Assembly (NCBI GenBank): GCA_023245335.1
Contig: JAHFKK010000001.1
Location: 1,000,019 to 1,064,018 of the forward strand
DNA length: 64,000 nt
Reading direction: 5' to 3'
Source of the DNA: Candidatus Gottesmanbacteria bacterium
GTDB taxonomy: Bacteria > Patescibacteriota > Microgenomatia > UBA10105 > UBA927
Shown: one piece after another, positions 6,159-39,239 of the stretch
Numbering within the stretch: the stretch's first letter is position 1
How the letters are laid out: every line of letters begins with the position of its first letter
The notes under the pieces: model-generated
The model's input: only the letters and a program-made list of their open reading frames with translations
Database searches by the model: none
What the model was told of the DNA's origin: nothing
Made by a program: the position numbers and the translations under genes

Positions 6159-7883
6159 ATGAGAGCAAGAAAGACGAGGAGCGCGTGGATCGAAATTATT
6201 TTAGGCAGTATTCTCCTTATCGCTACATTTTTACGTTTGTGGCAATTGGGATCTGTCCAACCCGGTTTGGCAAATGACGAGGCAGGCATTATCTATAGTG
6301 CATACTCCATCTGGAAAACAGGGCGCGAGCCGGCAGGCAAATTTTTACCCACTTCTATACAACTCGACAATTCATTTTCCCCCGTATACATCTATATAAC
6401 CGCGCCATTCGTAGGTCTCCTCGGCTTATCCCCGTGGGCAGGAAGGCTTCCATTCGCATTAACTGGAATCATGAGCGTGCTTCTTCTCTATTTCATTGTC
6501 AAAAAACTTAGCGACAACGATATCGTGGCATTAGGTGCTGCTGGCATCTTGGCACTTATCCCTTGGCATATATACGTTTCCCGCGCGGCGTTCGACGCTA
6601 ATTTTGCACTCGTCTTCTTTTTGGCAGGAATATATGCATTTCTTACATCTCAAAACAAACGGGTTAGGTCAATCCTCTGGTCACTCCTTTGGTTTTTTCT
6701 CGCGTTTTATAGTTATCACGCAACCAAACTATATTTCGTATTACTGCTTCCGACTCTCATCCTCATCTATTGGAAGTCACGAACTACCATACAGCGTATA
6801 GTCTTTATCCTCGGTACAATTCTCATCCTCTGCTCGTATGTGATTGTCCTCAAGACAAATGGACCGAATACACGAGCCGATGTTTTGATTTGGCAAAACA
6901 TGGACCAGTATAGTACCGAAGTTAATTGGCAACGCGAAAAATCTACCCTACCCGAAGGCCTTCGACCCGTATTCTCTAATAAAGTAACCGTAGCGGTACG
7001 CAAAGCAACCGAAACCTATCTAGAGGCGTTCTCAACAAACTATCTCTTTCTTTATGGAGAAACTGGTGCACTAACGAGTGTCTATGGCGGCATCATTAAC
7101 CAAGGACAATTATTTATTTTCATGCTACCATTTCTTATCTTTGGTGTCGTCGGTCTTTCAAAAACTTCAACGCGCACCAAACTACTTGTTACACTGCTTT
7201 TTTTATTCGCTCCAGTACCATCAGCCGCAGCATCGGACCGCACGCTTATTTTTCGAAGCTTCATGCTTTTAATCCCGCTTCCTATACTCGCGGGCTACGG
7301 CATTAACGAATGTATTATGTGGCTCAATACACAACGAAGCATCACAAAATGGATTGTTGTAGCGGGATACAGCATCTTTATTATAATCACACTTTGTTCA
7401 TATATTGCACATCTGTGGTACCGATATCCCGTCTATGGCGCAGAACGATGGTTTAAAAGCAGCACAGATCTCAGTATCTATGTACGAGATCATCATACAG
7501 ACTACTCTCGCGTAATCATTGTTCAATCCGGTTCCATGTTCCTATTTCAATTCGGTATATACGCTAAAATAGATCCAATCATAATACAGCGGGCTTGGAA
7601 CGCCAGACCACGAAGTGTCATAGACAATATCGTCTTTGCTGAATCTCCGTCATGCCCACGGATAACCCTCCCCACACGAGAAACCGCGTCATTGACAAAC
7701 CTGCTCCTCGTATGGCCGGATAATTGCGCAAATAGTTTGCTATCCACGCTGCCCCAAGTTTATACAATCAGGGAACGTGGCGAGCCTCTACGCTCCATAT
7801 GGCGAATGTATTCGCTACCAGCTAACACAACCTTCCAAACGAATTATCCGATGGATTTTTTCAGTCTTCCGACGAACCAATGA
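6159..7883 (+). CDS. GT39/GT83 (PMT/ArnT-like) polytopic membrane glycosyltransferase
   Basis: 574 aa with about 11 TM segments. The N-terminal loop carries the DE motif (NDEAGIIYSAYS) typical of ArnT/PMT GT-C enzymes. Confidence 0.7.
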   Translation: MRARKTRSAWIEIILGSILLIATFLRLWQLGSVQPGLANDEAGIIYSAYSIWKTGREPAGKFLPTSIQLDNSFSPVYIYITAPFVGLLGLSPWAGRLPFALTGIMSVLLLYFIVKKLSDNDIVALGAAGILALIPWHIYVSRAAFDANFALVFFLAGIYAFLTSQNKRVRSILWSLLWFFLAFYSYHATKLYFVLLLPTLILIYWKSRTTIQRIVFILGTILILCSYVIVLKTNGPNTRADVLIWQNMDQYSTEVNWQREKSTLPEGLRPVFSNKVTVAVRKATETYLEAFSTNYLFLYGETGALTSVYGGIINQGQLFIFMLPFLIFGVVGLSKTSTRTKLLVTLLFLFAPVPSAAASDRTLIFRSFMLLIPLPILAGYGINECIMWLNTQRSITKWIVVAGYSIFIIITLCSYIAHLWYRYPVYGAERWFKSSTDLSIYVRDHHTDYSRVIIVQSGSMFLFQFGIYAKIDPIIIQRAWNARPRSVIDNIVFAESPSCPRITLPTRETASLTNLLLVWPDNCANSLLSTLPQVYTIRERGEPLRSIWRMYSLPANTTFQTNYPMDFFSLPTNQ

Positions 7884-7997
7884 CACTGGAATCAAAAATA
7901 GTCAGTTGCGTGACATGACGATTTGACACCACATGACCTAATGTATAGCATACGAGTTGCAAGGAGCACATTTACAGGGAGCGGAAACTGGAAATTT

Positions 7998-8165
7998 TTT
8001 AGCGTGTGGCCCCGGTCACGACACAATCGGACCGTGGGATACGAGGAAGGCGTAAGCGAAACTATCTGCGGGTACGCCTCGGTTGCACTCTCAACCGCAA
8101 TCCGGATGAAAAACCCAACCGTAAGGCTGGATATAGATCAACCGGTTATGAGTCCGCCTCTCTAG
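7998..8165 (+). ncRNA. glmS ribozyme (glucosamine-6-phosphate-activated self-cleaving riboswitch)
   Basis: Found 150 nt upstream of the glmS ATG. It aligns to the conserved core AGCG...ACGAGGA-GGCG-UAAGCGAAA-CUGCGGGUACGCCU-CGGUUG...CAACCG...CCGUAAGG (Rfam RF00234: GACGAGGA..UAUCGAAU..GGCGGAUGCCUCC..CGGCUG..CAGCCGUAAGG). Confidence 0.55.
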
Positions 8166-8314
8166 ATCATTCTTACAAATTTACAAACAAAGGGCAGCAC
8201 ATAGCTTGTTCTGTCTTTAACTACGTTTATTAGGTGTGTCACGTATCATGTATCAATGTGTCACGCTCACATTCCTGACACTTGAGACCTGACGCCCATG
8301 ACACTATATATCTT

Positions 8315-10117
8315 ATGTGTGGAATATTCGGATACATCGGTCACAAAACAAACGCTCCGACGATCGTCCTTGAAGGACTCAAACGTCTCGAGTATCGCGG
8401 CTACGACTCCTGGGGAGTTGCCGTGGTGCCGGAGGGAGACGCCGAAAACATTCTCGTCAAGAAAAAGGCAGGAAAAATCGGCGCCGCGACCGTAACGAGC
8501 ATGCCGAAAGGGACACTTGCGTTCGGACATACCCGGTGGGCTACCCACGGCGGAGTGACGGACGTGAACGCCCATCCGCATCTCGACTGCACCAAAACCA
8601 TTGCAGTCATCCATAACGGGATCGTCGAAAATTACGAAGCACTCAAGGAAATGCTCACGAAAGAAGGGCACCACTTCGTATCCCAAACAGATACGGAAAT
8701 CATCGCGCATTTAGTGGAAGAAAATCTTAAGGCCATGAAGCCCGCCATTCGGGACGCCCAACCTGCTTTTTCCAAAGCGGTACAAAAAGCGTTTAATGCT
8801 CTCGACGGGCTTAACGCGATTATCCTTATAAACACCACGTCACACGAGATGGTGGCCGCAAGAAACGGCTCACCGCTTGTCGTTGGATTCGGTGACGGAG
8901 AAAATTTTCTCGCAAGCGATCCTGCGGCACTTCTCCCACATACCAAGCAAGTGCATTATCTGGAAGATGATGAGATGGTCATCGTGAGACCGGATGCCAT
9001 CCATATCTTTAACGCGAGGACCGGCGAACGGGTGCGGCCGCGGAAACAACTTCTCACGTGGACCGAAAAAGACGCGGAGAAAGGACAGTATCCCTACTTC
9101 ATGCTCAAAGAAATTTACGAGCAGCCCGGTCTTATGAGCGAAATTGCATCAGAATCGACGGAACAAGCTAAAGAATTGGCAAAGCAATTCGCTACTGCCT
9201 ACCGCGTATACGTCGTCGGAGCCGGCACATCCGGTCATGCCGCGCGGGCCGCATCGTATTTGTTTTCGGATATCTCCGCACATCTTATTAACTGGGGTAT
9301 CGCAAGCGAATTTGATCATCGGCTAAACGTGATACCGGAAAAAAGCCTAGTGGTAGCACTATCGCAATCGGGAGAAACGATGGATCTTATGGAAGTAGTG
9401 AAAAAAGCAAAGGCGAAAGGGATTGGTGTCGTTTCTATCGTCAACGTGGTGGGTTCTTCCCTATGGCGTATGGCCGATTTCCGTATGCCTATCGGAGCCG
9501 GACCGGAAAAAGGAGTGGCATCGACCAAGGCATTTACGTCAAAAATAGCGCACCTTATCCTTATCGCGTATGCAATGAAAGGAAACATCAGTGATGGACA
9601 AAAACTGCTCATACGGGCCGCCAAAAGCGCCAAAGAAGCGGTAAGCGAATCAAACGTCAAGCGTATCAAAGCGCTTGCGGCGAAGATGAAATCGGTCGAA
9701 CATATGTTCGTCGTGGGTAAGGGTATCTCCTATCCGGCAGCGCAGGAATGCGCGCTCAAGATAAAGGAAATATCCTATATCCATGCGGAAGGCGTCGCGG
9801 CAGGCGAACTCAAGCACGGCCCCCTAGCGCTCGTCACCAAAGGGACGCCATGCATCGTCATCGCGCCCAATGATGAGACCTATCGTGACGTCCTGGGAAG
9901 CGCGATGGAAATGAAAGCGAGAGGCGGTCATATCATCGGGTTTTCATATAAAAATGATGAGGTCTTTGATGATTACATACCGGTCGCCGATGCGGGTGAG
10001 GCGACGATTATCCCGAACGTCATCGTGGCCCAGCTCCTCGCCTACTATCTGACGCTTGAACGGGGCTTTGACCCCGACATGCCGCGAAATCTCGCCAAAA
10101 GCGTAACCGTGAAATAA
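8315..10117 (+). CDS. glmS: Glutamine--fructose-6-phosphate aminotransferase
   Basis: MCGIFGYIG N-terminal nucleophile Cys, two SIS domains, C-terminal ...KSVTVK. The upstream Met at 8282 would put the catalytic Cys at residue 12, so 8315 is preferred. Confidence 0.93.
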   Translation: MCGIFGYIGHKTNAPTIVLEGLKRLEYRGYDSWGVAVVPEGDAENILVKKKAGKIGAATVTSMPKGTLAFGHTRWATHGGVTDVNAHPHLDCTKTIAVIHNGIVENYEALKEMLTKEGHHFVSQTDTEIIAHLVEENLKAMKPAIRDAQPAFSKAVQKAFNALDGLNAIILINTTSHEMVAARNGSPLVVGFGDGENFLASDPAALLPHTKQVHYLEDDEMVIVRPDAIHIFNARTGERVRPRKQLLTWTEKDAEKGQYPYFMLKEIYEQPGLMSEIASESTEQAKELAKQFATAYRVYVVGAGTSGHAARAASYLFSDISAHLINWGIASEFDHRLNVIPEKSLVVALSQSGETMDLMEVVKKAKAKGIGVVSIVNVVGSSLWRMADFRMPIGAGPEKGVASTKAFTSKIAHLILIAYAMKGNISDGQKLLIRAAKSAKEAVSESNVKRIKALAAKMKSVEHMFVVGKGISYPAAQECALKIKEISYIHAEGVAAGELKHGPLALVTKGTPCIVIAPNDETYRDVLGSAMEMKARGGHIIGFSYKNDEVFDDYIPVADAGEATIIPNVIVAQLLAYYLTLERGFDPDMPRNLAKSVTVK

Positions 10118-10392: not shown

Positions 10393-11622
10393 ATGAATAA
10401 GCGTATTGCCATGATTTCCGTGCACGAGTGCCCGCTCGCATCCAGTGAAGGCAAAGAGCGCGGAGGCATAAATGTCTATGTGTACGAACTATCCAAAGCC
10501 CTAACGAGGCTCGGGTGGCAAATCGACATGTACACCCGCATGCAGGACTCTGTGAATCCCGCGGTCGTCCAGGTGAACGATAATGCGCGCGTCATCCACA
10601 TCCCTGCCGGCCCAAAGACGCCGATTCCCAAACAACAGGTCATCGGACATCTCGATGAATTTTCACGCAATATGGCCGAGTTCATCCGTGACGACGGAGC
10701 AACCTATAATTATATTCATGCACACTATTATTACTCGGGAGTAGTCGGCCGATATATAGCCGATAATTCGCAGTATTCGATACCTCTTGTCATGACATTT
10801 CACACCTTAGGACTACTCAAACAGCTAACGACTACGAATCATGCCGATGATCCAAAGGAGCGCATCCTCATAGAAAAAGAATTAGTTGCGGCAGCCACAA
10901 AAATTATCGCGACGAGTGACAATGACGCCACATACCTTAAAGCACTGTATGACGCTCCATCCGCGCGGATAGCGATCATCCCTCCGGGCGTCGACACGAG
11001 ACTTTTCCACAATGCCCCCAAAGAAGAGGCGAAACAAGCTATAGGCGCAGACCCCACGCATCGGATCATCCTTTCCGTCGGTAGGATTGATCCGGTAAAA
11101 GGATTAGATGTGTTGTTATATGGGCTCAAACTCATGATTAACGCACACCCCGAATACGCACAAAATACCTGTTTATGGATTGTCGGCGGCGATGTAGAAG
11201 AAAAACGCCGTGAATGGAATTCCGAACAAGCCAAGCTGGAATCCATACGCGAGACGCTCGGACTCCGGACGACGGTCAAATTCATCCCGGCGCAATCGCA
11301 GGAAAAACTCCCTGATTATTATAATGCCGCAGACGTCTTAGTCATGGCCTCGCACTACGAGTCTTTTGGGATGGTCGCTTTGGAGGCCTTAGCCTGCGGG
11401 ACACCGGTTATCGCCACAGACGTTACCGGTATCTCCCCGCTTGTGAAGGCGTTCCCGAAAGGACATATCATATCCGCCAACAATCCGATTCTCCTTTCAC
11501 AAAAACTCGCGCACGTCTTATCGCACCCGCCATTGGTGCAGGCAGATACCCAAAAAATTATTTCGTCTTTGGATTGGTCAGAAACCGCCAAAAAAGTGAT
11601 CTACGTCTACGAAGCATTGTGA
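10393..11622 (+). CDS. GT4 family glycosyltransferase (MshA/sucrose-phosphate-synthase-like)
   Basis: N-terminal GGINVYV(YE)L and a C-terminal E-x7-E region (ESFGMVALEALACGTPVIA). Confidence 0.8.
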   Translation: MNKRIAMISVHECPLASSEGKERGGINVYVYELSKALTRLGWQIDMYTRMQDSVNPAVVQVNDNARVIHIPAGPKTPIPKQQVIGHLDEFSRNMAEFIRDDGATYNYIHAHYYYSGVVGRYIADNSQYSIPLVMTFHTLGLLKQLTTTNHADDPKERILIEKELVAAATKIIATSDNDATYLKALYDAPSARIAIIPPGVDTRLFHNAPKEEAKQAIGADPTHRIILSVGRIDPVKGLDVLLYGLKLMINAHPEYAQNTCLWIVGGDVEEKRREWNSEQAKLESIRETLGLRTTVKFIPAQSQEKLPDYYNAADVLVMASHYESFGMVALEALACGTPVIATDVTGISPLVKAFPKGHIISANNPILLSQKLAHVLSHPPLVQADTQKIISSLDWSETAKKVIYVYEAL

Positions 11623-13259: not shown

Positions 13260-14789
13260 TTATAGTTCTTTGTTCGCCGCTGGGTCCTGATTATACTTCT
13301 CAGGTTTGCCGAGTTTGATGTAAAACTCCGCCCGCTGCAATTCGGTGCCGATATAGATAAGGTGACTTGGCAAAACGAGGTACTCACCGATATTCACCAT
13401 TTCAATGTAGAGTTCCATAGCGGTCTTTTCCCGCCATTCCTTGAGAAGCAGTCCGCCGTTTGGTGCATAGAGTTTGACGACAATTTCCCATTCGGTATCC
13501 GGGGGCTTCGTAGCGTATTTGGTAGGTCTTCCGACACTATTTTTGTCCGTTTGCTCGACCGAAACGACCACGTTCCCCCGCGGATCATCTTCAAACATCT
13601 GCCTGCTCGTGTAGCCTAACTCTTTGTCATAATTTTCTTTCAGGATCTTTTCGACCAACTCGTAATCATCGCTATAGATGTGCGCGCTATGGGTGATCAT
13701 GACGAACGCCCCCATGGCGACCCCCGACTCGTCGCAAATAAGCTTCTGTAATTTCCGAAGGCTAAATACGTTCCTGGGCCAGCCGTGCACCATATCCTGA
13801 CTCCGAAAATGCGTCGTCATAAAAAGTCTGCCGTCCTCTATGCTGCAGAGAATCTGTGTGAGGCACGGCGTGTCCCCTTTGTTGACGACCGACCAGTCTT
13901 CTTTAATTTTGGCGGTAAATGCAACCATCTTTTTCGAAAACGGTCGTGTTTTGATAAGGTCTATGATGTTTTGGATCTGATCGACGCCGTCATGATCGCG
14001 CAGTCTCTGCCCATACGTATATGCGATGCCGGGAATCTGTTTGGCGGAAAGTACCTGCGGATAATACGAAAGCAAATCTTTTTCCGAAAACGGGAAAAAG
14101 TGCGGCAGATATGGCTTGTCCGGATCCTCGTCATAGACGACCGCCATGACGTTCAGGAACTCTTTGAGTTCATTTTCCTGCGTGTAGCGGGTCGTTTTGT
14201 TGCGGCCGTACCGCATGATATTCATAAGGATTTTGAGCCATGCTTGCGCCGCGGTCTTCCCGTGTATGCGAACACCGATCTGTTCGCTGGGATACGTAAA
14301 CGGTTTGGGGCGACTGGTCGGAAACTTTTTGGGCTCGGTAAATGGCGCGGGCGGGACGGCCCCCAAATCACTGACTGTTTTCCTCAAAAGATCCGGAGAT
14401 TTGCCGCGGAGATTGATGACCTCTACGGATGTGCGGAAAAGGTCTATGGCATCCTTACCTATTTCCTTCTCTATCTGCCCGCCTTTCTCGTCCCCGATAA
14501 TGAAAAAATTCTCGTCGACGCCATTTGCCATAAGCGCCATAAGCGCCTGGCCGCTTCGGGAAAGGTCAGCGCCCCACAAAACGATCTTCCGTACATGCGG
14601 GTTGGCATAGACGTTTCTGATCATTGCCGAAATTCCCGCGGACGAATACAGGTTACCGATGGCGCAATAGTTCTCGTCTTTCAGAAGGTTCGCGACCACC
14701 TGCCGTTCCGTCCACATGATTGCAACCCCGACGGGATTCTTGGGGTCTTTGACATGCAACACTTGTCTATAGAGAATCGGCCAATCCAT
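13260..14789 (-). CDS. thyA: Thymidylate synthase (ThyA, archaeal-type PCL active site) with ~200-aa N-terminal extension domain
   Basis: The C-terminal ~300 aa carries ThyA folate/dUMP motifs including the catalytic Cys in TPCL (archaeal-type rather than PCH). It is adjacent to dcd. The N-terminal domain is unassigned. Confidence 0.65.
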   Translation of the reverse strand: MDWPILYRQVLHVKDPKNPVGVAIMWTERQVVANLLKDENYCAIGNLYSSAGISAMIRNVYANPHVRKIVLWGADLSRSGQALMALMANGVDENFFIIGDEKGGQIEKEIGKDAIDLFRTSVEVINLRGKSPDLLRKTVSDLGAVPPAPFTEPKKFPTSRPKPFTYPSEQIGVRIHGKTAAQAWLKILMNIMRYGRNKTTRYTQENELKEFLNVMAVVYDEDPDKPYLPHFFPFSEKDLLSYYPQVLSAKQIPGIAYTYGQRLRDHDGVDQIQNIIDLIKTRPFSKKMVAFTAKIKEDWSVVNKGDTPCLTQILCSIEDGRLFMTTHFRSQDMVHGWPRNVFSLRKLQKLICDESGVAMGAFVMITHSAHIYSDDYELVEKILKENYDKELGYTSRQMFEDDPRGNVVVSVEQTDKNSVGRPTKYATKPPDTEWEIVVKLYAPNGGLLLKEWREKTAMELYIEMVNIGEYLVLPSHLIYIGTELQRAEFYIKLGKPEKYNQDPAANKEL

Positions 14790-21191: not shown

Positions 21192-21971
21192 CTAGCGTTG
21201 TTCGTTTAAGGTCTCCGGAAGAGAATTGCTCAACTGCATGGCAATATGGTCAGCCAATTCATCCATGCCGCCTCGTCTTAGTATATACGGCGATGTGTTG
21301 ATGAGTGTGGCTCCTGCGGGCGAATTATGTAAAGAGTAATACCGATCCAGCAATGCCAAAAAATCCATTTCCTTGCCGCGTTTCTTCATGACCGCCCTCC
21401 TCGTGTGCAGTCGGTGTTGCGCTGCATCTCCGTATTGCGCAACCACGGCGTACTTTATCCTGGCTTCCGGGACTATTTCGTCAGACGGCAAATCCGTGAC
21501 AAGCACTCCTCCGCCGGTACGTATAATCCCTTCCCGCACAATCGGCCGCATCAATTGACGTACGACGGTCGATTGCTCTACGGCCCCAGCCGCAATTTCC
21601 AATTTTCCGCGGCTCACCGGCCACGTCTCCGATAATGGATGGACAGTCAGATCACGACGTCCGCTGACAAGATGCATTCTGCCCTGGTCACTTCGTACGA
21701 TTTCAAAATGAGGTTTTCCCTTATCCTCCAGCCAAGTACGTATCAAATCCAGGCCTGCTTGGCGCATCTGCATTGGGCCTTCTTCCGGTTCATCGAAGAT
21801 ATGTTCCCGTAGGCCCTCATGGGCCACACGAAAAACAAGATCATCGGTGTCAAGGACTCGCATTCCCAACCGGCCCGCCAGAGGTAATGCTAACTCCATG
21901 CCTCCCGAACTGCGAGAACCCTGTATAGGAATAGTGGACTGCAGGGAAATTTGTTCCGACCGGACTGCCAT
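21192..21971 (-). CDS. Hypothetical conserved protein
   Basis: 259-aa ORF with no recognisable motif. Immediately upstream of the P-type ATPase. Confidence 0.45.
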   Translation of the reverse strand: MAVRSEQISLQSTIPIQGSRSSGGMELALPLAGRLGMRVLDTDDLVFRVAHEGLREHIFDEPEEGPMQMRQAGLDLIRTWLEDKGKPHFEIVRSDQGRMHLVSGRRDLTVHPLSETWPVSRGKLEIAAGAVEQSTVVRQLMRPIVREGIIRTGGGVLVTDLPSDEIVPEARIKYAVVAQYGDAAQHRLHTRRAVMKKRGKEMDFLALLDRYYSLHNSPAGATLINTSPYILRRGGMDELADHIAMQLSNSLPETLNEQR

Positions 21972-28472: not shown

Positions 28473-29909
28473 TTGTCCTCGGCAGCTACTTCTGATAGCC
28501 TAGATAGTGTGAAGAAACATGCCGTAAAATTCGTCCATCATGCTAAACACATCGCGCACCACCTTCGAAACCATCGGGCAATCACGCGGCGTAACGTGCT
28601 TCTTTTCTTCGTGGGACTGAACATTTTCTTTCTTTTCGTCATTATGATGAATACCATGAGTTTCCCGAACACTATGGTCGGCGGCGTCAACCTGGGACTC
28701 AAAACAAAAACCTATATACGAAACTATCTGGCCGGAGTATATGGCACACCATTTAAACTCACCATCAATTCCCATACGTACGATTTGAACTATGAGCACA
28801 TCGGGGTATATATGAACCCCGATGGCGCCATAAACGAAATATTTGCACCCAATACTAAGCCTTTTCCCGAAAACGTCGGGGCGTTTGTCGCGTCGGTCTT
28901 TCAGAAGCGTCCCGTAAAGATCCCATTGTCATTCTCCCAGGAATTCTACGAATACGTCACCAAAATAAACATCGCAGGAAGCAACCACAACGATATAGTG
29001 TACGTGAATCAGGAAAATAAACAGGTGACACTCTTCACGCCCGAACAACGATATCGTATAAATACCTCCCTATTTCAGACTGAACTCACGAAGCGGTTCG
29101 GGAGACACGAAGATGCGTTACTGGTCCCGCTGGTCGAAGTACCCAATACACTTGAAAAAGACGTAGAGGCAGCAAACACCAAACTCCTTGCCGCCTATAA
29201 AGATCCTCTCACCGTGATCGTCGGGATCAACAGTGCCAACCGCTTCCTCACCCTGTCGCCTGATGACCTCCGACGTTACACGGTTGCAAGTATTTCGGCC
29301 AATTCCCACGACGTACAACTCAACGTAAATAGCAAAGCGTTTGCCCCGGATCTCTCACGGGCTCTTGCCGTGTACACCGCATCGTTTAACCCGACGCTCG
29401 CAAGCGAAAAAATCGGTGACGAGATGAAAAACGCACTGCTTACCCGTATGACCGGCTCACCCATGGATTCCATCAAGGTCGGCATAGACAACGGGCCGAA
29501 TACGGACGGAGAAATAGCCACGAAATATATAGAGATCGATATTTCCCAACAAAAACTTTTCACATTCAACCAGGGCAAACTGGTGAAAACGTACCGCGTG
29601 TCTACCGGCAAGGACTACCCTACACCAGTCGGAAGATTTGCCATTCTCAATAAGGCAGGACTCGGATACTCATCGATCTATAACGTCTGGATGCCATACT
29701 GGATGGCGTTTTCGTTTTCCGACGTCTTGCACGCCTATTTCGGAATTCATGAGCTCCCTTATTACTACACCGGGGGGACGAAGATCCAACGCCCGAGGGA
29801 CTTCATCGGAGCGCCCAATACGGGCGGGTGTGTGGCTCTGGACATCGGTGACGCGAAAGAGGTTTACCAGTTTTCCGATATCGGTACCCCGGTCGTCATT
29901 TACCAATAG
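28473..29909 (+). CDS. L,D-transpeptidase (YkuD domain) with N-terminal TM and large extracellular domain
   Basis: C-terminal catalytic motif HELPYYYTGG...SGGCVAL (here H...APNTGGCVALDIGDAKEVY). Confidence 0.8.
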   Translation: MSSAATSDSLDSVKKHAVKFVHHAKHIAHHLRNHRAITRRNVLLFFVGLNIFFLFVIMMNTMSFPNTMVGGVNLGLKTKTYIRNYLAGVYGTPFKLTINSHTYDLNYEHIGVYMNPDGAINEIFAPNTKPFPENVGAFVASVFQKRPVKIPLSFSQEFYEYVTKINIAGSNHNDIVYVNQENKQVTLFTPEQRYRINTSLFQTELTKRFGRHEDALLVPLVEVPNTLEKDVEAANTKLLAAYKDPLTVIVGINSANRFLTLSPDDLRRYTVASISANSHDVQLNVNSKAFAPDLSRALAVYTASFNPTLASEKIGDEMKNALLTRMTGSPMDSIKVGIDNGPNTDGEIATKYIEIDISQQKLFTFNQGKLVKTYRVSTGKDYPTPVGRFAILNKAGLGYSSIYNVWMPYWMAFSFSDVLHAYFGIHELPYYYTGGTKIQRPRDFIGAPNTGGCVALDIGDAKEVYQFSDIGTPVVIYQ

Positions 29910-30669: not shown

Positions 30670-33144
30670 ATGTCAGTAATTGTATCATACGTGCGTATAG
30701 GGCCTCAATTGAAACTTCGCCTCGATGCTGTTACGCTAACGGGTATGTTTGACCGCTGGAAGCGATATCTTCCCGTTGGTATCATCATTCTTTTTTCTTT
30801 CTTCCTTTTCCGGAACTATTTTCTGAAAGGCCTGGTCCCGTTCCCGGCGAACTTACTGGTTGCGACATACGAGCCGTGGAGAAGTTATCCGGTGCCGGAA
30901 TATCCCAACGGTCCGCCGAATAAGCCCATGGGGTTTGACAACATCCGCATTTATTATCCTCTCAAAAAAGTAGCAATTGATCTCGTCAAACACGCGAAAC
31001 CTCCTTTGTGGAATCCATATAATTTCACCGGCAACCCGATACTCGCGACGTACCAGTCCGCGATATTTCACCCACTTTCATTTCTCTACCTCCTCCTTCC
31101 GCAAATCGATGCATGGAGTATTATCATCATCCTTCAGCCTATCCTTGCGGGACTTGCGATGTATGCGTTTCTTTCGGCATTGGAATTTTCGATGTCTGCG
31201 TGCCTATTGGGCGCCCTCACGTTTGCATTTTCCGGATTTTTCATCGTGTGGTGGGAAGAAGCCTTCATGTTCACCTACTCGGCATTATTCCTCCCGATCG
31301 CGCTTACCGCCGTTGAATTATTCCTCAAAAGCCGTCGCCGCATCTGGCTTGCCGTATTCGCACTGAGTCTTGCCGGTTCAATCGTATCGGGCGCATTCCA
31401 AATGACGTTTTATGTCTTCCTTTTTACGGCCGCCTGGATCACATACCGGCTGTGGCACGAAAAAAAGAAGTGGCAGTTTTTTGGGATGTTCCTGGGGGCA
31501 GGCATAATCGCCCTCCTTCTTGGAAGCGTTCATCTCCTCCCTAGCATGGAAGCATATTATCACTCCGCGCGTATATCCGCAGACGCCAAGTATATTTTTG
31601 ACGCGTACCTCCTGCCGCTTACACAGCTTATCACCCTCATCGCTCCCGACTATTTCGGCAACCCCGGCACGTATAACTATTTCGGATCAGGATTTTATCA
31701 CGAACGTATGATGTGGTTCGGCGTCGTGCCGCTTTTCTTTGTTCTCATGGAATTTATGCATCCGTCTCAAAAACGACATGCATTATTTTTCCGGATCGCA
31801 TTTCTGGTTACGCTTTCATTGGTCCTTGCTCTCCCCACGACATGGCTTCTCCTCTACTATCTCAAACTTCCGTTGCTTTCGACCCTGACCCCATCGCGCA
31901 TGATGATGCTGGTCACATTCTCGGCGGCGGTTCTTACCGCTTATGGCGTAGAAACATACTGGCAGGGAATCCAAAAACGGACGCTGGTCATAACAACGCT
32001 CCTCCTGGGAGCAAGCATTGCGGTCGCAGGCTTCTATCCTATCTACATCCATCATCTACAGCCCAAACTGACGATGTATTATATGGTGTCACTCCGAAAT
32101 CTCGTCATCCCGACGGCAAGTCTCGGCATCATCGTTATCACTCTTTTCGTGAGCCGGGTACATAAGCGACTCCGGCCGGTAGGTTTTGCTATCCTCACGG
32201 CGGTGCTACTCACCGGCAGCGTTCTGTTTGCGCAAAAATTTCTCTATTTTTCTGAACGGAGATTTATTTATCCGGCGACGCCAGTCCTTAGTGAATTGCA
32301 AAAACGCGCCGGGTTCGACCGATTTTGGACGTACGAGAATGGGTATATAGAAAAAAACTTCGCCACATACTATGGATTATTTAGTCCCGAAGGATACGAC
32401 TCCATCACCATCCGGCGGTACGGTGAACTATTGAGTTTCGCTGACTCGCACGGCGCCTCCATGACGTCTTCCCGTTCGGATGCGCTCATCCAGTCTACCG
32501 ACCATCTCAACAACATTCTCACCGATCCCTACAGGAAAAAACTTCTGGAGCTCCTGGACGTGCGGTATATCTTGCAACGGTTACTGCCTGACAGAAGCGA
32601 AAAAGCCGTATTGCCCGACCCTACGCAACTTCCGACTGTCTGGAAAGACAATACGTATGCAATTCATGAATATAAAGAGGCTCTCCCTCATGCTGCGTTA
32701 TATAGCTTGGTAGCGGTGATTCCCGACGGAAAAACAGAACTCACCGCCATGTTCGACACAACAACAGATATCCATACCCGTCTGTTTCTTGAACAAAAAC
32801 CGGAAGGATTAACCCTGAATCCCGAAGCAACAGGAACTGCTTCAATCACCGGTATACAACCGAATTCCGTCTCTATCCGGACGCAAACCACCGACGCCAT
32901 GATGCTTTTCCTTTCGGATGCATACTATCCGGGCTGGAATGCTTATATTGATAGTGTAAAAACTCCGGTGTATCGTGCGGACTATGCGTTTAGGGCCGTC
33001 GCAGTGCCCAAAGGAACCCATATAGTGATATTCAAATATGAGCCGCTGTCCTGGAAGTTAGGTCTCATACTATCGAGCATAGGAATAGTTTTCCTTGGAT
33101 TTCTCGTGCTAACAAAAAACATCACACAACTAAAAAAGAAGTAA
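30670..33144 (+). CDS. YfhO-family membrane glycosyltransferase (GT-C fold)
   Basis: 824 aa, polytopic. Conserved C-terminal YfhO signature DAYYPGWNAYIDSVKTPVYRADYAFRAVAVPKGTHIVIFKYEP. Confidence 0.8.
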   Translation: MSVIVSYVRIGPQLKLRLDAVTLTGMFDRWKRYLPVGIIILFSFFLFRNYFLKGLVPFPANLLVATYEPWRSYPVPEYPNGPPNKPMGFDNIRIYYPLKKVAIDLVKHAKPPLWNPYNFTGNPILATYQSAIFHPLSFLYLLLPQIDAWSIIIILQPILAGLAMYAFLSALEFSMSACLLGALTFAFSGFFIVWWEEAFMFTYSALFLPIALTAVELFLKSRRRIWLAVFALSLAGSIVSGAFQMTFYVFLFTAAWITYRLWHEKKKWQFFGMFLGAGIIALLLGSVHLLPSMEAYYHSARISADAKYIFDAYLLPLTQLITLIAPDYFGNPGTYNYFGSGFYHERMMWFGVVPLFFVLMEFMHPSQKRHALFFRIAFLVTLSLVLALPTTWLLLYYLKLPLLSTLTPSRMMMLVTFSAAVLTAYGVETYWQGIQKRTLVITTLLLGASIAVAGFYPIYIHHLQPKLTMYYMVSLRNLVIPTASLGIIVITLFVSRVHKRLRPVGFAILTAVLLTGSVLFAQKFLYFSERRFIYPATPVLSELQKRAGFDRFWTYENGYIEKNFATYYGLFSPEGYDSITIRRYGELLSFADSHGASMTSSRSDALIQSTDHLNNILTDPYRKKLLELLDVRYILQRLLPDRSEKAVLPDPTQLPTVWKDNTYAIHEYKEALPHAALYSLVAVIPDGKTELTAMFDTTTDIHTRLFLEQKPEGLTLNPEATGTASITGIQPNSVSIRTQTTDAMMLFLSDAYYPGWNAYIDSVKTPVYRADYAFRAVAVPKGTHIVIFKYEPLSWKLGLILSSIGIVFLGFLVLTKNITQLKKK

Positions 33145-33545
33145 TATCGCACGAACATACATATATGGCACTAGGATTTAGAATAGAAAAATTGCTTTTC
33201 GGAGAGAAGCGGGCAGAGATTAATGCGGCTGCCAGAAAAGCAGACAAGCTTTTGCGTAAACCCATACCACCTTTATTTGAAACGACGGTTCTTTATGTGG
33301 CAAGGAGCTATCTCAGTTGGGGAGCCGCTTCACAAGACAGACAACTCCAACTAGCTCAGTATATTGAAGCGGTCAGCGCAAAAATTCATATACAAACAGA
33401 GGGGAAAAAGGAGCTTAGACCAGCAAGAAAACAATCTTGAGGCGCGGAAGGTTGATGGTTGGTTAATGAGTAGATTCCGATATACGAATTTACCAACCAT
33501 CAATGTCGTGTACTCACGACGTGATTGACTGACTAATATCACTTG

Positions 33546-33617
33546 AGGCGCGGAAGGGAATCGAACCCTTGCATAGAAGTTTTGCAGACTCCCGCGTTAC
33601 CACTTCGCCACCGCGCC
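33546..33617 (-). tRNA. tRNA-Cys (GCA)
   Basis: Reverse complement folds as a cloverleaf: acceptor GGCGCGG/CCGCGCC, anticodon stem GGAGT/ACTTC with loop CTGCAAA (anticodon GCA), T-arm AAGGG-TTCGATT-CCCTT. CCA is not encoded. Confidence 0.8.
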
Positions 33618-33778
33618 ATATACACTACACTATTTCTATAGACATTCTCCCGCGTTATCCCCTTTGGGGATTGATCGGCTACTAAACTCTCGCGATAAGA
33701 TCGGGATCGTTAACTAGCCATCAAGCCAATCCCCACCGCGCCAATGTTTCTTATTGTACCAAGAACCTTCTTGCCACG

Positions 33779-36160
33779 CTAGCTTTTTCGTCGGCCAGTC
33801 CATGCAAATCCTAACCAGAATACAAACGATATTATAGATAATGCGATGCCCCAATTCAGTGACGCCGGTTCATACCGAAACATGACCGTATGTTTACCCT
33901 TGGGCACCACCACCCCCCGAAATGCATAGTTCGTCCGGTAGACCGTTACCTCGTTTTCGTCTACCGTCGCCTTCCAGCCCGGATAGTCGTTGTCGGATAA
34001 TACTAAAAACGCCATTGTCTGTGTTTGCGTATGGATACTCACACGGTCGGTCTCATAGGAAGAAATTGTAGCCGATCCAACGACCCCGTCAGTATGTATC
34101 CATCCGCTTACCGGGGTTTCGACAAACGACGTTGTAGCAAGATTCGTACCTTCCGCAAACATACTCATAAGTTCTTTGTCCGGGTCCGCAATTGATATCA
34201 CGCGGTTCGTAAGATATGCCCTTGGATATGCGGACTGCCTTTGGTATACAACCCAATTGGCATCTTCCCACAGCCGATCACAGTTCCTGGAATCTAACGG
34301 ATCTTTCGGCCTACAACTATTCATTTCTGATTTCCTGACCAGGAGTCCTTCCGTTCCGGTCATATCCCAAAACCGTTCACGGCGCTTTGAAAGCGCCGCA
34401 CTCACAGAAGCATCCGGAACTACCGTGACATCGCTTCTGAGTATTCCGTTGGATCTGTCCCCCGTATTGACATACGAAACCAGCTCGCCGTACCGCCTGA
34501 CGTATAACGGATCGTAATAATTATCGTCGTAAAAACGGTAATACGTCGCGAAATCAGTTGCAATGGACGCCGTGCCAGTATATGCCACCCTGTTAGGCGC
34601 AAACGACCGGAGCGCGGTAAGAAGTCTGTGTTGCGGCATGACATTTTGCGTGTTGGTAAATGGTATAAATTTGTACGCGTCGTAAGCACCGAATACCAAA
34701 ACAGTCATGATAACAATCCATCCGACGACGCGGCGGGAAACATTCGTATACAGTGAAATAAAAAGTGTCAGCATTATGATGCCGTAGGCCGCCGATTCGA
34801 GCATCGTATTCCGCAGAGCAATTGAGAAACACGCCGTTATAATGGGATTGTTACATGGAACATGCAATCGGACGAGTGTGATTGTGACAAAGAGTATTAT
34901 TCCCAACATCGCTCCGACGCCGATGATTAGCCACAACATAGTTCGCGTCTTCTTCACCCTCAGAAACGCATCCATTCCGAGTCCGGCAAGCATAGCTATG
35001 GCAAATGTAGCCATGCTCATGATCCGGGATGGAGCCCCGGTCGTAAGGATCGGAATCGGCAGCCGATAAAGAAACTCCGTTCCCCACCATCGGAGGGACA
35101 AGAGGACGGAACCGATAGCGACGCCGGCAAAAAATATCGGAAGCAAAGGGTGTTTCCCCTTGCGGAATACCATCGCAAATACGGCAAAGAGAAACGCACC
35201 GCTTCCGACCGATGAAACGCTTTCAATATATTCGACCCGACCCCAATAATTGTAGATCGCGGGATTGCCGAAAAAATTCGGGACGAGAACGGTGATGAAA
35301 TGCCCGATCGGGACGAGGAACTTCAAAAAAATAAATGCGGAAGTTTGGGTAGAAATCGCCGCCCTGGTCGAAAGTTCGGCAGTCGGAATGAGCTGAAATG
35401 CAACAAGCCCTAGACCCAAAATTCCTGCGATCACAAGCGTCATCCAAAGAGCAGTATCCTTCACCCTTCCGCTCTCGCGTACACGAAAAACCGCGTATGC
35501 CACAGCAACGAATAGCATGTAGAGGGATAACTGAGGGAATCCGGTCAATATAACCCAAGAAATCGCGACCGGCAGCCAGCCGACCCCACCCCTTCTTCTC
35601 AAAACGAGCCGATCAATGCTCCACAACAGAAACGGGAGTCCGGCGTACGCGTAGAGATATGTCCCGAATATGGAATTGGTGATGACATATCCCGAAACCA
35701 GCCACACTACTGCGGCAAATACCATCCCGACAGGAGTCATACCAAGGGATGCGGTATACAAAAAACTAAAGACCGCTATGGCCAGAAATTGCCCGACGTA
35801 CAGTGTTGTCCACGCGTGTGCGGGCGATGCGACGAAAAACGCGAGACTCAATGGATTTACCAAACCAAAATGTTGTATGGCAAAAAGCGGCTGACCGGCA
35901 CCATTATACGGATTCCATAACGGCAGGCGACCCTGACGCATAAGGTTTGCTGAAAGGACTTTAAAAGGAAATATCTGGCGGAAGACATCGTCTCCGATTG
36001 CTTTATGGGGAATTGCGGGTACGCCGTTTACTGCTGTGTCTGTCTTCCATGGCTCAAACCAAGCTCTTTGAAAATCTCCCGAAAACGGAACTACTCCGCG
36101 GGACCAGAGTATGGAAATGGCGACTATCGCAATAAGTACGACGGAGATATACCGACGCAT
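33779..36160 (-). CDS. YfhO-family membrane glycosyltransferase (second paralog)
   Basis: 793 aa. C-terminal DNDYPGWKATVDENEVTVYRTNYAFRGVVVPKGKHTVMFRYEP is homologous to the paralog at 30670. Confidence 0.8.
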   Translation of the reverse strand: MRRYISVVLIAIVAISILWSRGVVPFSGDFQRAWFEPWKTDTAVNGVPAIPHKAIGDDVFRQIFPFKVLSANLMRQGRLPLWNPYNGAGQPLFAIQHFGLVNPLSLAFFVASPAHAWTTLYVGQFLAIAVFSFLYTASLGMTPVGMVFAAVVWLVSGYVITNSIFGTYLYAYAGLPFLLWSIDRLVLRRRGGVGWLPVAISWVILTGFPQLSLYMLFVAVAYAVFRVRESGRVKDTALWMTLVIAGILGLGLVAFQLIPTAELSTRAAISTQTSAFIFLKFLVPIGHFITVLVPNFFGNPAIYNYWGRVEYIESVSSVGSGAFLFAVFAMVFRKGKHPLLPIFFAGVAIGSVLLSLRWWGTEFLYRLPIPILTTGAPSRIMSMATFAIAMLAGLGMDAFLRVKKTRTMLWLIIGVGAMLGIILFVTITLVRLHVPCNNPIITACFSIALRNTMLESAAYGIIMLTLFISLYTNVSRRVVGWIVIMTVLVFGAYDAYKFIPFTNTQNVMPQHRLLTALRSFAPNRVAYTGTASIATDFATYYRFYDDNYYDPLYVRRYGELVSYVNTGDRSNGILRSDVTVVPDASVSAALSKRRERFWDMTGTEGLLVRKSEMNSCRPKDPLDSRNCDRLWEDANWVVYQRQSAYPRAYLTNRVISIADPDKELMSMFAEGTNLATTSFVETPVSGWIHTDGVVGSATISSYETDRVSIHTQTQTMAFLVLSDNDYPGWKATVDENEVTVYRTNYAFRGVVVPKGKHTVMFRYEPASLNWGIALSIISFVFWLGFAWTGRRKS

Positions 36161-36193: not shown

Positions 36194-36883
36194 TTATAGC
36201 ACCGAGGAAATTTTTTCAAACGTGGCGCGGATAGCTTTGTCGGGAAACATCTGATCTTTGGTAAACTCGTTCGGCACTACGAAACACGTCACCCCTGCCG
36301 CGATTGCGGATGCCGCACCGACGGTAGAATCTTCTATCGCGATCGTCGTTTTTGGATTCGTATTGAGAAGCTCGATCGCCTTGAGGTACATATCGGGCGC
36401 CGGTTTTTTCGGCAGTCCGAAATCGCCCAGTGCCACGATAATCGGAAAATACTGAAGAAGGTTTGTCCCACGCAAATTCCGGATAACTTCCTCCCGATGG
36501 ACCTGCGAAGAAATCGCCATGAGGATACCTTTGGCATACAGGCGTTTGACTATGTCGACTGCGGGTTCGATAAGAACGATGCCATAATCCCGCTGCATTT
36601 GTTGGTACAGACCAAGTTTACGGTAATGTACCTTCAAAAAAATAGATTCAGAAAATTCCTTACCCAGACCGGTGAAGACCCGCTCATAAAATTTCAGCGG
36701 ATCGACCCCGACGCCTTCATGGACATAGAGTTCTTTGGTGAGCTCAATTCCCACTTCGGAAAGGGCGAGCTTGTGGGCGGCAAAATGATAGGATTCCGAG
36801 TCCACCAGTACGCCGTCCATATCCCACACCACGGCATATGCGTCGTCGAATAGTTTGGTAAATTGTGCGGTTTCTTCAGTCAT
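36194..36883 (-). CDS. HAD-IA hydrolase (beta-phosphoglucomutase/phosphatase-like)
   Basis: Motif I DMDGVLVDSE, motif III K....., motif IV IEDSTVG. Confidence 0.75.
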   Translation of the reverse strand: MTEETAQFTKLFDDAYAVVWDMDGVLVDSESYHFAAHKLALSEVGIELTKELYVHEGVGVDPLKFYERVFTGLGKEFSESIFLKVHYRKLGLYQQMQRDYGIVLIEPAVDIVKRLYAKGILMAISSQVHREEVIRNLRGTNLLQYFPIIVALGDFGLPKKPAPDMYLKAIELLNTNPKTTIAIEDSTVGAASAIAAGVTCFVVPNEFTKDQMFPDKAIRATFEKISSVL

Positions 36884-37561
36884 GACCGACTTATTATGGC
36901 AGATTTATCACGGATTACAATGGGATTCCCACAAAAAATCCCTGGCGGAGCCAGGGAAATTTGTTTAATCCACCCGATCTTCCTTTGCGCCTTACCTACT
37001 ATTCGTAGCGCGGCGCAAAGAGCGATCTTTAGCGGACTTCGGTGCCTTTAGCAACCGGATGGTGATAGGGTTCACCCAGAGCAATGAAAAGAAACCACAC
37101 CGCATAGAGCGGAAGCAATTATCTTTTCGTGCATAGGGTTAGGGATTTGAGAGAAAACTAGAAAAGATCATCCCGCTAAATGCGGAATATCTCGATCATG
37201 AACTAGTTTTCAAATAGAAAGGAGGTGATCCATCCCCAGCTTCGGCTAGGGATACCTTGTTACGACTTAGTCCCCATCGCTGAACTTACCTTCGACTCGT
37301 AAACGAATCTTCGGGTACTTTCAACTTTGGTGGCTTGACGGGCGGTGTGTACAAGACCCGAGAACGTATTCACCGCGGCCTGCTGATCCGCGATTACTAC
37401 CAATTCCAACTTCATGAGGTCGGGTTGCAGACCTCAATCTGAATTGAGGCGAAATTTTAGAGATTTGCTTGGCATTACTACCTTGCGTCCCGTTGTTATT
37501 CGCCATTGTAGGGTGTGTGTGGCCCAGGGCATAAGCGCCGTGCTGACTTGACGTCGTCCCC

Positions 37562-37690
37562 TCCTTCCTCCCCCTCTCTATAAACAGAAGTAAATAGTAA
37601 TGAGTAAATAGTAAGTAGATTAAAAACAAAAACGTTTTCTTTCTATTCACTACTCACTATTTACTATTCACTCTTCCGTCCATAGAGAGG
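37562..37690 (-). repeat. ~128-nt palindromic expansion replacing 16S helix 40, built from a TAAATAGTAA-type repeat unit
   Basis: It lies between GGAGACCGCC and GAGGAAGG, where E. coli has the 15-nt h40 hairpin. It forms the stem ccctctctat...atagagaggg with internal tandem repeats taaatagtaaNgag. Confidence 0.7.
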
Positions 37691-37760
37691 GGGCGGTCTC
37701 CGATGACACTTGTAACATCGGATAGGGGTTGCGCTCGTTGTCCCACTTAAGGGAACACCC

Positions 37761-37791
<31 letters not shown>

Positions 37792-37905
37792 GCTGTGCTA
37801 CCATCCTTGCGGATCCCCTCCCATTTCTGGATGGGTAAACGGTAGCATGTCAAACCCTGGTGAGGTCCTTCGCTTTGTCTCGAATTGAACCACACGCTCC
37901 ACTGG

Positions 37906-37937
<32 letters not shown>

Positions 37938-38326
37938 TAAGCTTGCGCTCGTATTCCCCAGGCGGTCTGCTTAACGCGTTAGCTTACGACAGACAGATTG
38001 CTCTGCCCATCTAGCAGACATGCGTTTAGGGCTAGGACTACGCAGGTCTCTAATCTGCTTCGCTCCCCTAGCTTTCGTGTCTCAGCGTCAGATATTGGCC
38101 AGAAAGGTGCCTTCGCCTTCGGTGTTCCTCATGATATCAACGCATTTCACTGCTTCACCATGAGTTCCCCTTTCCTCTCCAATCCTCGTAGTTTACCCAT
38201 CTCGTATCCAACGTCGAGGTTAAGCCTCGAGCTTTCAGATACGATGCGGTATACCGCCTACACGACACTTTACGCCCAGTAAATCCGGATAACGCTTGCA
38301 CCCTACGTATTACCGCGACTGCTGGC

Positions 38327-38560
38327 CTGTCACACATTGTGACAAACTTTGGACTATATCTTCATCCCGATTCGTATCGGGAGTCTCGCGTATAGTCTCT
38401 GAGGACTCTCTCCGCCAAAGGCGGAGGTTGCCTGCTGATTGTCTTGATACATGTCTGCTGTGTAGCAGAATACTTCGCGGTATATCAAGGTGTTCCAGCA
38501 TATAGCGAGATTTTCTTTCATTACATTACTGTATGACTACGCACCAAACCCCTTACCGGG
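38327..38560 (-). other. ~234-nt insertion in 16S rRNA at E. coli position ~514/515 (within the 515F primer site)
   Basis: Conserved flanks ...ACTACGTGAC | insert | GCCAGCAGTCGCGGTAATAC. The insert is hairpin-rich and has no ORF. Confidence 0.7.
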
Positions 38561-38987
38561 GTCACGTAGTTTGTAGGTGCTTATTCGCCAAAGCCTGTCG
38601 ACCTTGGCAAAAGAGGTTTACGATCCGAAAACCTTCATCCCTCACGCGGCGTCGCTCGGTCAGACTTTCGTCCATTGCCGAATATTCCCAGTTGCTGCCA
38701 TCCGTAGATGTATGGCCCGTGTCTCAGTGCCATTGTGGGGGGTCGTGCTCTCACACCCCCTATCCGTCGTCGCCTTGGTAGGCCTTTACCCCACCAACTA
38801 GCTGATAGATGCAGGGCCACTCCTCCTCCGCGCGGTTAAGCGCTTTGACCTTACGGCCTCATGCGGTATTACCCCGTCTTTCGACGAGCTATCCCACAGA
38901 AAAGGGCATGTTCCCTGCTTATACTCACCCGTCCGCCACTGTAAATTAAATCTTGCGACTCAAAAAACCGTTCGACTTGCATGCTTA

Positions 38988-39030
<43 letters not shown>

Positions 39031-39239
39031 AAAAAAATTGACGTAAGGAGCATTTGTTTGACCAAATTCTGCTTACATCAAAAAAAATCCTATCACCATT
39101 CGATTGTTAAAGTACTCTCCTGAGAGAAAACGTAGATTTTCTCCCAACGCGACCTAGTCAAGCTGGCAGGTGCTTTCGCGATTCCTGCCGTCGCTGCTTT
39201 TCCCGGTTAGTGAAAAGCGAGGTGATGCAAAGAGCGAAA

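Follow-up and report, generated by a model that had tools for sequence, protein, structure and literature searches.

The closest described systems belong to the glmS ribozyme family (RF00234). In Bacillus subtilis, glmS expression is lowered via RNase J1 attack on the 5'-OH cleavage product. In Enterobacteria, glmS is controlled by the GlmY/GlmZ-RapZ system, which combines trans-acting small RNAs with a protein adaptor and involves no self-cleaving leader. Structural variants of the glmS ribozyme with extra core stems, which belong to the rare cases outside Firmicutes, are said to have been described in Deinococcus-Thermus by McCown, Roth and Breaker in 2011. For the family in general, cleavage with glucosamine-6-phosphate (GlcN6P) as the cofactor destabilizes the glmS message and results in negative feedback (PMC5473149).

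The CPR/Patescibacteria possess tiny genomes with few recognizable regulators, and metabolic control in these bacteria is almost unstudied. No discussion of a glmS ribozyme or riboswitch in CPR, Patescibacteria or Microgenomates was found in the literature, although copies may still be listed in Rfam or GenBank. As judged from its sequence, the glmS leader in the Microgenomates (CPR) genome analyzed here contains a complete glmS ribozyme, a member of a known family rather than a new kind of element.

Identification and phylogenetic spread of the ribozyme

A 431-nt intergenic leader (7884–8314) separates glmS from an upstream ORF for a membrane glycosyltransferase of the PMT_2 family (6159–7883). 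Apart from the ribozyme itself, the features of this locus are as follows:

7923–7951, + strand: promoter-like site TTGACA-17 nt-TAGCAT, identified by a consensus scan with 10 of 12 matches
8157–8314, + strand: spacer of 158 nt between the ribozyme and the start codon, with no Shine-Dalgarno sequence and with four TGACAC/GTGTCA copies
8315–10117, + strand: glmS, glutamine--fructose-6-phosphate aminotransferase, 600 aa (TIGR01135, NF001484)

The assignment of glmS is supported by the NCBIfam profiles TIGR01135 (633.7 bits, with a cut-off of 418) and NF001484 (658 bits). The gene starts with the ATG at 8315, which is followed by TGT, so that the protein has a Met-Cys N-terminus (MCGIFGYIG).

A scan of the entire 64-kb window (the whole stretch of DNA analyzed) against the 4227 families of Rfam 15 at the gathering threshold identifies RF00234 at 7990–8155 on the + strand. 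The match covers model positions 1–167 of 167, and its 53.0 bits exceed the gathering score of 37, with an E-value of 2e-9 (1.4e-11 when the leader is searched alone). This is the sole cis-regulatory match in the window, and neither the gathering scan of the window nor a permissive scan of the leader detects any other Rfam family in the glmS leader. A covariance model built from nine relatives, from which the window copy was left out and the variable insert hairpins were trimmed (hereafter, the clade model), yields a single match in the window, at 7997–8156, with 111.1 bits and an E-value of 2e-26. The ribozyme (8001–8156, +) and glmS are located on the same strand, with the RF00234 match 160 nt upstream of the gene.

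These searches bear out the preliminary description, which had proposed a probable glmS ribozyme upstream of glmS and had named an RF00234 cmsearch score below the gathering score as one result that would speak against it. The letters it quoted, A8001/G8002 CGUGUGGCCCCGGUCAC, GAUACGAGGAAGGCGUAAGCGAAACUAUCUGCGGGUACGCCUCGGUUGCACUCUCAACCG (8039–8097) and CCGUAAGGCUGG (8119–8130), are present exactly, and the cleavage site it predicted, A8001/G8002, is the position aligned to A-1/G+1 of the family. The extent it gave, 7998–8165, is otherwise right, with an end about 10 nt too far downstream because the functional element ends at ~8153–8156, at the 3' strand of P3.1.

The closest GlmS relatives among the GTDB species representatives (up to 80% identity) come from MAGs of Candidatus Gottesmanbacteria, Woesebacteria, Microgenomates and Patescibacteria group bacteria. 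Of the 19 closest loci, 12 have a ribozyme upstream of glmS that Rfam detects at the gathering threshold. The clade model identifies it directly 5' of glmS in 22 of the 80 loci of GlmS relatives (L001–L014, L017, L019, L022, L023, L027, L028, L039 and L065), which include approximately all relatives with a GlmS identity of at least ~55% and three with lower identity (L027, L039 and L065; 48–55%). No match to this model was detected in the remaining loci of the 80, from Levy-, Roizman-, Davies- and Peregrinibacteria and Saccharimonadales. An entire sub-clade of Microgenomates shares the glmS ribozyme as a conserved element upstream of glmS. The expectation that a copy in this genome would be phylogenetically notable thus holds only in part: no paper on CPR copies was found, but the ribozyme is a trait of the sub-clade rather than a one-off in this genome, and, with a score above the Rfam threshold, the window copy would already be flagged by routine Rfam-based annotation. 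Many of the GTDB representative MAGs with the Microgenomates-type GlmS and the ribozyme, L001, L002 and L005 among them, are titled "uncultured Gammaproteobacteria bacterium" (TPA_asm); apparently, these titles are placeholder or wrong taxonomy labels.

Anchored extraction of these copies reveals a clade signature that consists of A/GCGUGUGG (the slash marks the cleavage site), AUACGAGGA and UCUGCGG. A metagenome scan with this signature yielded 60 contigs, all 60 of which contain a full-length match to the clade model (45–123 bits). A glmS gene starting with MCGI is located directly downstream in 56 of the 57 contigs with enough sequence, 54 being recognized by pattern and two on inspection. 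The identical GlmS protein is also encoded on metagenome contigs of 340 kb and >1 Mb.

The length of the element varies widely in the clade. Insertions in P1 reach 210 nt, and the P2 loop of many relatives accommodates one or two additional hairpins, so that the distance from ACGAGGA to UCUGCGG is 56–138 nt compared to 24 nt in the window copy. The latter is compact, without extra stems in the P2 loop or P1, a form that it shares with L001; its RNA proper, from the cleavage site 8001/8002, is ~155 nt long. Rfam scores in the clade are low for full-length matches (38–68 bits), and 4 of the 22 loci positive with the clade model (L004, L009, L011 and L012) were left out by the gathering scan because of large insertions in P1 or the P2 loop. 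With the clade model, these four contain clear glmS ribozymes upstream of glmS (~2470–2930), with scores of 40–111 bits. Standard annotation accordingly under-counts the Microgenomates copies, given that such insertion-bearing relatives go unreported at the Rfam gathering threshold.

Architecture and covariation

The structure of the window copy was mapped with the help of the Rfam alignment, and residues were numbered and assigned roles according to Andreasson et al. 2020 (PMC7125110) and Yu et al. 2024 (PMC11602151). It consists of the following elements:

8001–8002, + strand: predicted scissile bond between A(-1) 8001 and G(+1) 8002, aligned to the AG of the family consensus aAGCGCC
8003–8008, + strand: 5' strand of the P2.2 pseudoknot (C2 G3 U4 G5, bulged U6, G7), numbered as in PMC7125110
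8009–8039, + strand: P1 hairpin of 31 nt, from the Rfam alignment and the MFE fold
8040–8047, + strand: catalytic core strand U-ACGAGG-A, with ACGAGGA invariant in 21 relatives and the window
8048–8079, + strand: P2 helix, AGGCG (8048–8052) with CGCCU (8075–8079), from pairing in relatives
8080–8097, + strand: P3 hairpin CGGUUG/CAACCG (8080–8085 with 8092–8097), from pairing in relatives
8102–8145, + strand: P4, the A-rich internal loop IL4 and P4.1, from the Rfam alignment
8150–8153, + strand: 3' strand of the P3.1 pseudoknot, GAGU, which pairs with ACUC (A8087–C8090) of the P3 loop

The A/GCGUGUGG sequence at the cleavage site is retained in 20 of 21 relatives. In P2.2, all five pairs can form (C8003-G8070, G8004-C8069, U8005.G8068, G8006.U8067 and, beyond the bulged U8007, G8008-C8066); C2-G56, G3-C55 and G7-C52 exactly match the canonical pairs, 4-54 is a U.G wobble and 5-53 is a G.U wobble. 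P1 is formed by C8010-G8038, C8011-G8037, C8012-G8036, C8013-G8034, G8014-C8033, G8015-C8032 and U8016-A8031, with a bulged U8035 and G8009.A8039 at the base. In the core, C8042-G8058 and G8043-C8057 constitute P2.1, A8041 forms the triple A8041·(C8042-G8058), and G8046 is, by alignment, the counterpart of the catalytic guanine (Tte G40, Bsu G42). U8040, immediately 5' of ACGAGG, stands where the Rfam consensus has G, and G8056 is found opposite A8044, where the relatives have U. P2 encloses the 3' strands of P2.1 (C8057 G8058) and of P2.2 (8066–8070), followed by G8071 and G8072. P4 and P4.1 contain one mismatch each, and P4.1 is capped by the GNRA tetraloop GUAA (8121–8124); such a loop, GNRA with a pyrimidine as its second nucleotide, is a typical feature of the family (PMC2258182). 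A terminator-like site on the minus strand (8132–8113) is merely the P4.1 hairpin and the A-rich IL4 read backwards. The MFE fold alone yields P1, P2, P3, P4 and P4.1, with a z-score of -1.64 that is not significant alone, as expected of a pseudoknotted RNA.

Covariation was assessed in two alignments, one of 21 genome-derived copies, anchored and spliced, and the other of 57 distinct metagenomic and window sequences (the compact set), in which the nested helices were fitted to the covariance model. In the genome-derived alignment, 83.9% of the cells of the full structure with both pseudoknots are paired, compared to 36–49% when the 3' partners are slid. Changes on both sides are present in 29 of 41 pairs (14–20 when slid), and the covariation score is 0.397 versus at most 0.172 for the slid controls; none of 500 shuffles reached the observed value. 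In the compact set, 92.8% of the cells are paired versus 39–47% in the slid controls, compensatory changes occur in 37 of 42 pairs, and the covariation score is 0.549 versus at most 0.112.

The individual helices behave consistently in the two sets. P2 is 97% paired with compensatory changes in 4 of 5 pairs in the genome-derived alignment, and 95% paired with all 5 pairs compensatory in the compact set. P3 in the compact set is 99.7% paired, with compensatory changes in 6 of 6 pairs, and P4 and P4.1 are 90% and 94.5% paired, respectively, with compensatory changes in every pair. The lower pairing of P4 and P4.1 in the genome-derived alignment (67–69%) reflects register slips of MAFFT rather than real mismatches, given the 90–94% observed in the compact set. 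The P3.1 pseudoknot, which is part of neither covariance model, is 87.6% paired with three compensatory pairs among the genome-derived copies and 77.7% paired with 5 of 5 compensatory pairs in the compact set. The P1 base pair alternates between C-G and U-A, 13:7 and 36:17 in the two sets, respectively. P2.2 is paired in 98% of the cells among the 21 relatives; in the compact set, it is invariant by construction and gives no covariation evidence because the search pattern fixed it. Both P2.2 and P2.1 hardly vary in the clade, as is the case in the glmS ribozyme family at large. A plain MAFFT alignment of the full-length matches and a model-fitted alignment could not be used to assess P2.2 and P2.1, owing to the 50–130-nt insertions and the local-end alignment.

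These observations bear on the possibility that a fortuitous match or a short coding ORF, rather than a structured RNA, accounts for the region. Two mechanically called ORFs of 75–80 aa (7923–8165 and 8006–8233, + strand) overlap the ribozyme region. However, the E-value of 2e-9, the independent detection by a model built without the window copy, and the compensatory changes in all helices, which follow RNA pairing and not codon structure, leave this explanation with a negligible probability, and the two ORFs are effectively refuted as coding sequences by the clade model detection and the covariation. The variation of length among the relatives by hairpin insertions also argues against it. The match in sequence and structure, the synteny with glmS, the conservation across the clade, the covariation of every helix and the presence of the catalytic and ligand-pocket residues jointly establish the family membership and the architecture of this RNA.

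[quoted passage not shown] Against this background, it can be asked whether the altered core, with U26, U4.G54 and G5.U53, makes the lineage-specific variant a functionally distinct subclass, for example, one with another ligand preference, an altered dependence on Mg2+ or GlcN6P, or constitutive cleavage. These substitutions, fixed in the whole clade, affect positions of high conservation in the Rfam consensus, and both the low Rfam scores of the full-length matches and the four insertion-bearing relatives under the gathering score speak for such a subclass. Nevertheless, the reported contacts to the substrate and the cofactor are all retained (A-1, G1, C2-G56, G57, A27·C28-G45 and the catalytic G), a glmS gene accompanies the element in nearly all testable metagenomic contigs, and the 5-53 pair is reported to be poorly conserved in the family anyway, so that a change in behavior is very unlikely.

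Gene context and predicted control of glmS

Given this evidence, the RNA very probably functions as a metabolite-dependent self-cleaving ribozyme in the 5' leader of the Microgenomates glmS mRNA, according to the textbook mechanism. Transcription would probably start at the promoter-like site 7923–7951, ~40–45 nt upstream of the cleavage site. This is the only such site on the + strand within 7700–8400, and the promoter assignment is a weak one because matches of this kind are within chance expectation (one found versus 1.3 expected). The nascent leader is predicted to fold into a nested double-pseudoknot core (P2.2-P2-P2.1) stacked on P1 and braced by the P3/P3.1/P4/P4.1 domain. Upon accumulation of GlcN6P, the product of GlmS, this metabolite would bind the preformed pocket and serve as the cofactor for the predicted self-cleavage between A8001 and G8002. 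By analogy with B. subtilis, the downstream fragment with its 5'-OH would then decay faster, resulting in less GlmS and, as the presumed outcome, in negative feedback on the amino-sugar supply for peptidoglycan and glycoconjugates. No RNase J-like domain was detected among the 10 large ORFs scanned in the 64-kb window, a sample too small to be informative for the genome. A search of the + strand from the ribozyme to glmS detected no intrinsic terminator.

In the window, glmS is located among envelope genes that encode the PMT_2 glycosyltransferase (6159–7883), an MshA-like GT4 glycosyltransferase (10393–11622; 292 bits, below the equivalog cut-off), two YfhO-family proteins, an L,D-transpeptidase and a PBP2-type transpeptidase (the coordinates of the other envelope genes are 28473–29909, 30670–36160 and 56675–58558). 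Given that the PMT_2 and GT4 genes flank glmS and that peptidoglycan enzymes are encoded in the window, the link between the control of glmS and the envelope glycosylation machinery that the preliminary description made is a reasonable inference. Elsewhere in the window, the 16S rRNA gene (37218–39036, - strand, 1819 nt) is interrupted by a group I intron (38327–38573; RF00028, 73.5 bits), an arrangement associated with CPR bacteria, and a 509-aa ORF (13260–14789, - strand) displays an unusual fusion of MtrA-like, thymidylate-synthase and PterinBD-DUF4346 domains.

Features of the glmS start region complicate this picture. There is no Shine-Dalgarno (SD) sequence before glmS in the window, whereas AAGGAG(G) is present in 18 of 21 relatives, and the spacer of 158 nt compares with 32–96 nt in most close relatives. 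Across the window, SD motifs are almost absent, with a weak match in 8 of 45 ORFs, which is near the chance level, despite the 3' end of the 16S rRNA, CACCUCCUUUC, being a normal anti-SD sequence. By contrast, -10-like hexamers are enriched 6–11 nt upstream of start codons (22 matches, 7 of them at offset 7, compared to a background of ~1.7 per offset). This pattern, with 21192–21971 on the - strand, 10393–11622 on the + strand and 36194–36883 on the - strand as examples, suggests that leaderless mRNAs are widespread in this genome. A TTGAGA-17 nt-TATATA sequence ends 4 nt before the ATG of glmS, and, together with the -10-like boxes upstream of other starts, this TATATA-like box implies that part of glmS expression could bypass the ribozyme.

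A corresponding rival reading is that the RNA is a true glmS ribozyme homologue that has been partly or wholly decoupled from its gene, with a proximal promoter from which glmS would be transcribed as a leaderless mRNA that begins at the ATG at 8315 or close to it, so that the ribozyme would control only a minority of transcripts from a distal promoter or would be a relic. Although the lack of an SD sequence, the long spacer, the promoter-like site adjacent to the ATG and the window-wide statistics all point in this direction, the ribozyme shows no signs of decay: its 111 bits with the clade model are within the range of the close relatives (111–133 bits), and the core residues are all intact. 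Moreover, the TATATA box breaks the usual A2/T6 rule, and its offset of 4–5 nt is less than the modal 7 nt. The SD sequence is missing from several metagenomic relatives as well, yet these retain the ribozyme; hence, SD-independent initiation on leadered mRNAs seems to be normal in this group. Decoupling is therefore quite improbable.

The leader also contains a cluster of TGACAC hexamers. Six of the 33 copies in the window are found within 7881–8304, at 7881, 7924, 8276 and 8299 (TGACAC, + strand) and at 8236 and 8258 (GTGTCA), flanking the ribozyme, with none inside it. The cluster includes a direct repeat, TGTGTCACG, at 8235 and 8257, and one copy overlaps the -35 box of the promoter-like site. 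This cluster may be an operator array for a regulator; the closest relative, L010, has no such cluster in its spacer. The hexamers were also considered as -35 boxes of additional promoters, and this possibility was rejected because no fitting -10 boxes are present at 16–18 nt. For GTGTCACG alone, there is no window-wide enrichment (3 found versus 1.65 expected). It is conceivable, if unlikely, that the Microgenomates ribozymes constitute a distinct sub-class in which a remodelled core (the U26 triple, two G.U pairs and optional hairpins) confers different kinetics or ligand preference, and that, at this locus, a second layer of control is added by the TGACAC operator array, the proximal leaderless promoter or both.

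With the textbook mechanism as the preferred reading, the conservation of the ribozyme on glmS predicts that at least one Microgenomates sub-clade retains direct RNA-based feedback on amino-sugar synthesis, which fits the surrounding peptidoglycan and glycosyltransferase genes. Such an RNA could be a natural ligand-responsive part for a CPR group in which genetic tools are sought; riboswitches have been proposed as genetic tools for that group (PMC11665869). To researchers working on ribozymes, the clade offers naturally occurring "double mutants" in P2.2 and the 26·7-52 triple, along with many insertion variants. The understanding of the glmS ribozyme family is unchanged, and the clade signature, the insertion variants and the sub-threshold copies are a modest addition to its known diversity.

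Comparison with known systems

In its position in the same-strand 5' leader of glmS, the window copy resembles the canonical glmS ribozymes of B. subtilis, B. anthracis and Thermoanaerobacter tengcongensis. It shares with them the A/G cleavage site followed by CG; P1, P2, P2.1, P2.2, P3, P3.1, P4 and P4.1 in this order; the ACGAGG core with the catalytic guanine; the GCGG strand of P2.2; the A-rich IL4; the GYAA tetraloop; and a length that is that of a compact canonical ribozyme. The host differs, CPR/Microgenomates as opposed to Firmicutes, and there is no downstream SD site here.

The differences in the core are clade-wide. The Rfam consensus reads AGCGCC...GACGAGGA...UCGGCGG, whereas, in the clade, U4 and G5 form wobble pairs with G54 and U53, respectively, so that P2.2 is CGUG/UGCG instead of the canonical CGCC/GGCG. 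The canonical G at position 26, immediately 5' of ACGAGG and the third strand of the 26·7-52 triple, is replaced by U, and the closing pair of P1 is G.A instead of A-U. When position 5 or position 53 alone is changed in a Thermoanaerobacter core construct, the rate drops ~1000-fold, and given this sensitivity, activity in the sequence context of the window copy is an assumption. Across the family, the 5-53 pair is reported to be poorly conserved in nature. Being poorly conserved in nature yet sensitive to mutation, it makes the Microgenomates glmS ribozymes look, at the sequence level, like a co-adapted variant rather than decayed copies.

The GlmY/GlmZ-RapZ system of Enterobacteria follows the same logic, GlcN6P feedback on glmS at the mRNA level, and nothing similar to its components was seen here. 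The structural variants of Deinococcus-Thermus reportedly have extra stems in the core, as do many relatives of the window copy. Those variants carry insertions, whereas the window copy itself is compact and lacks them.
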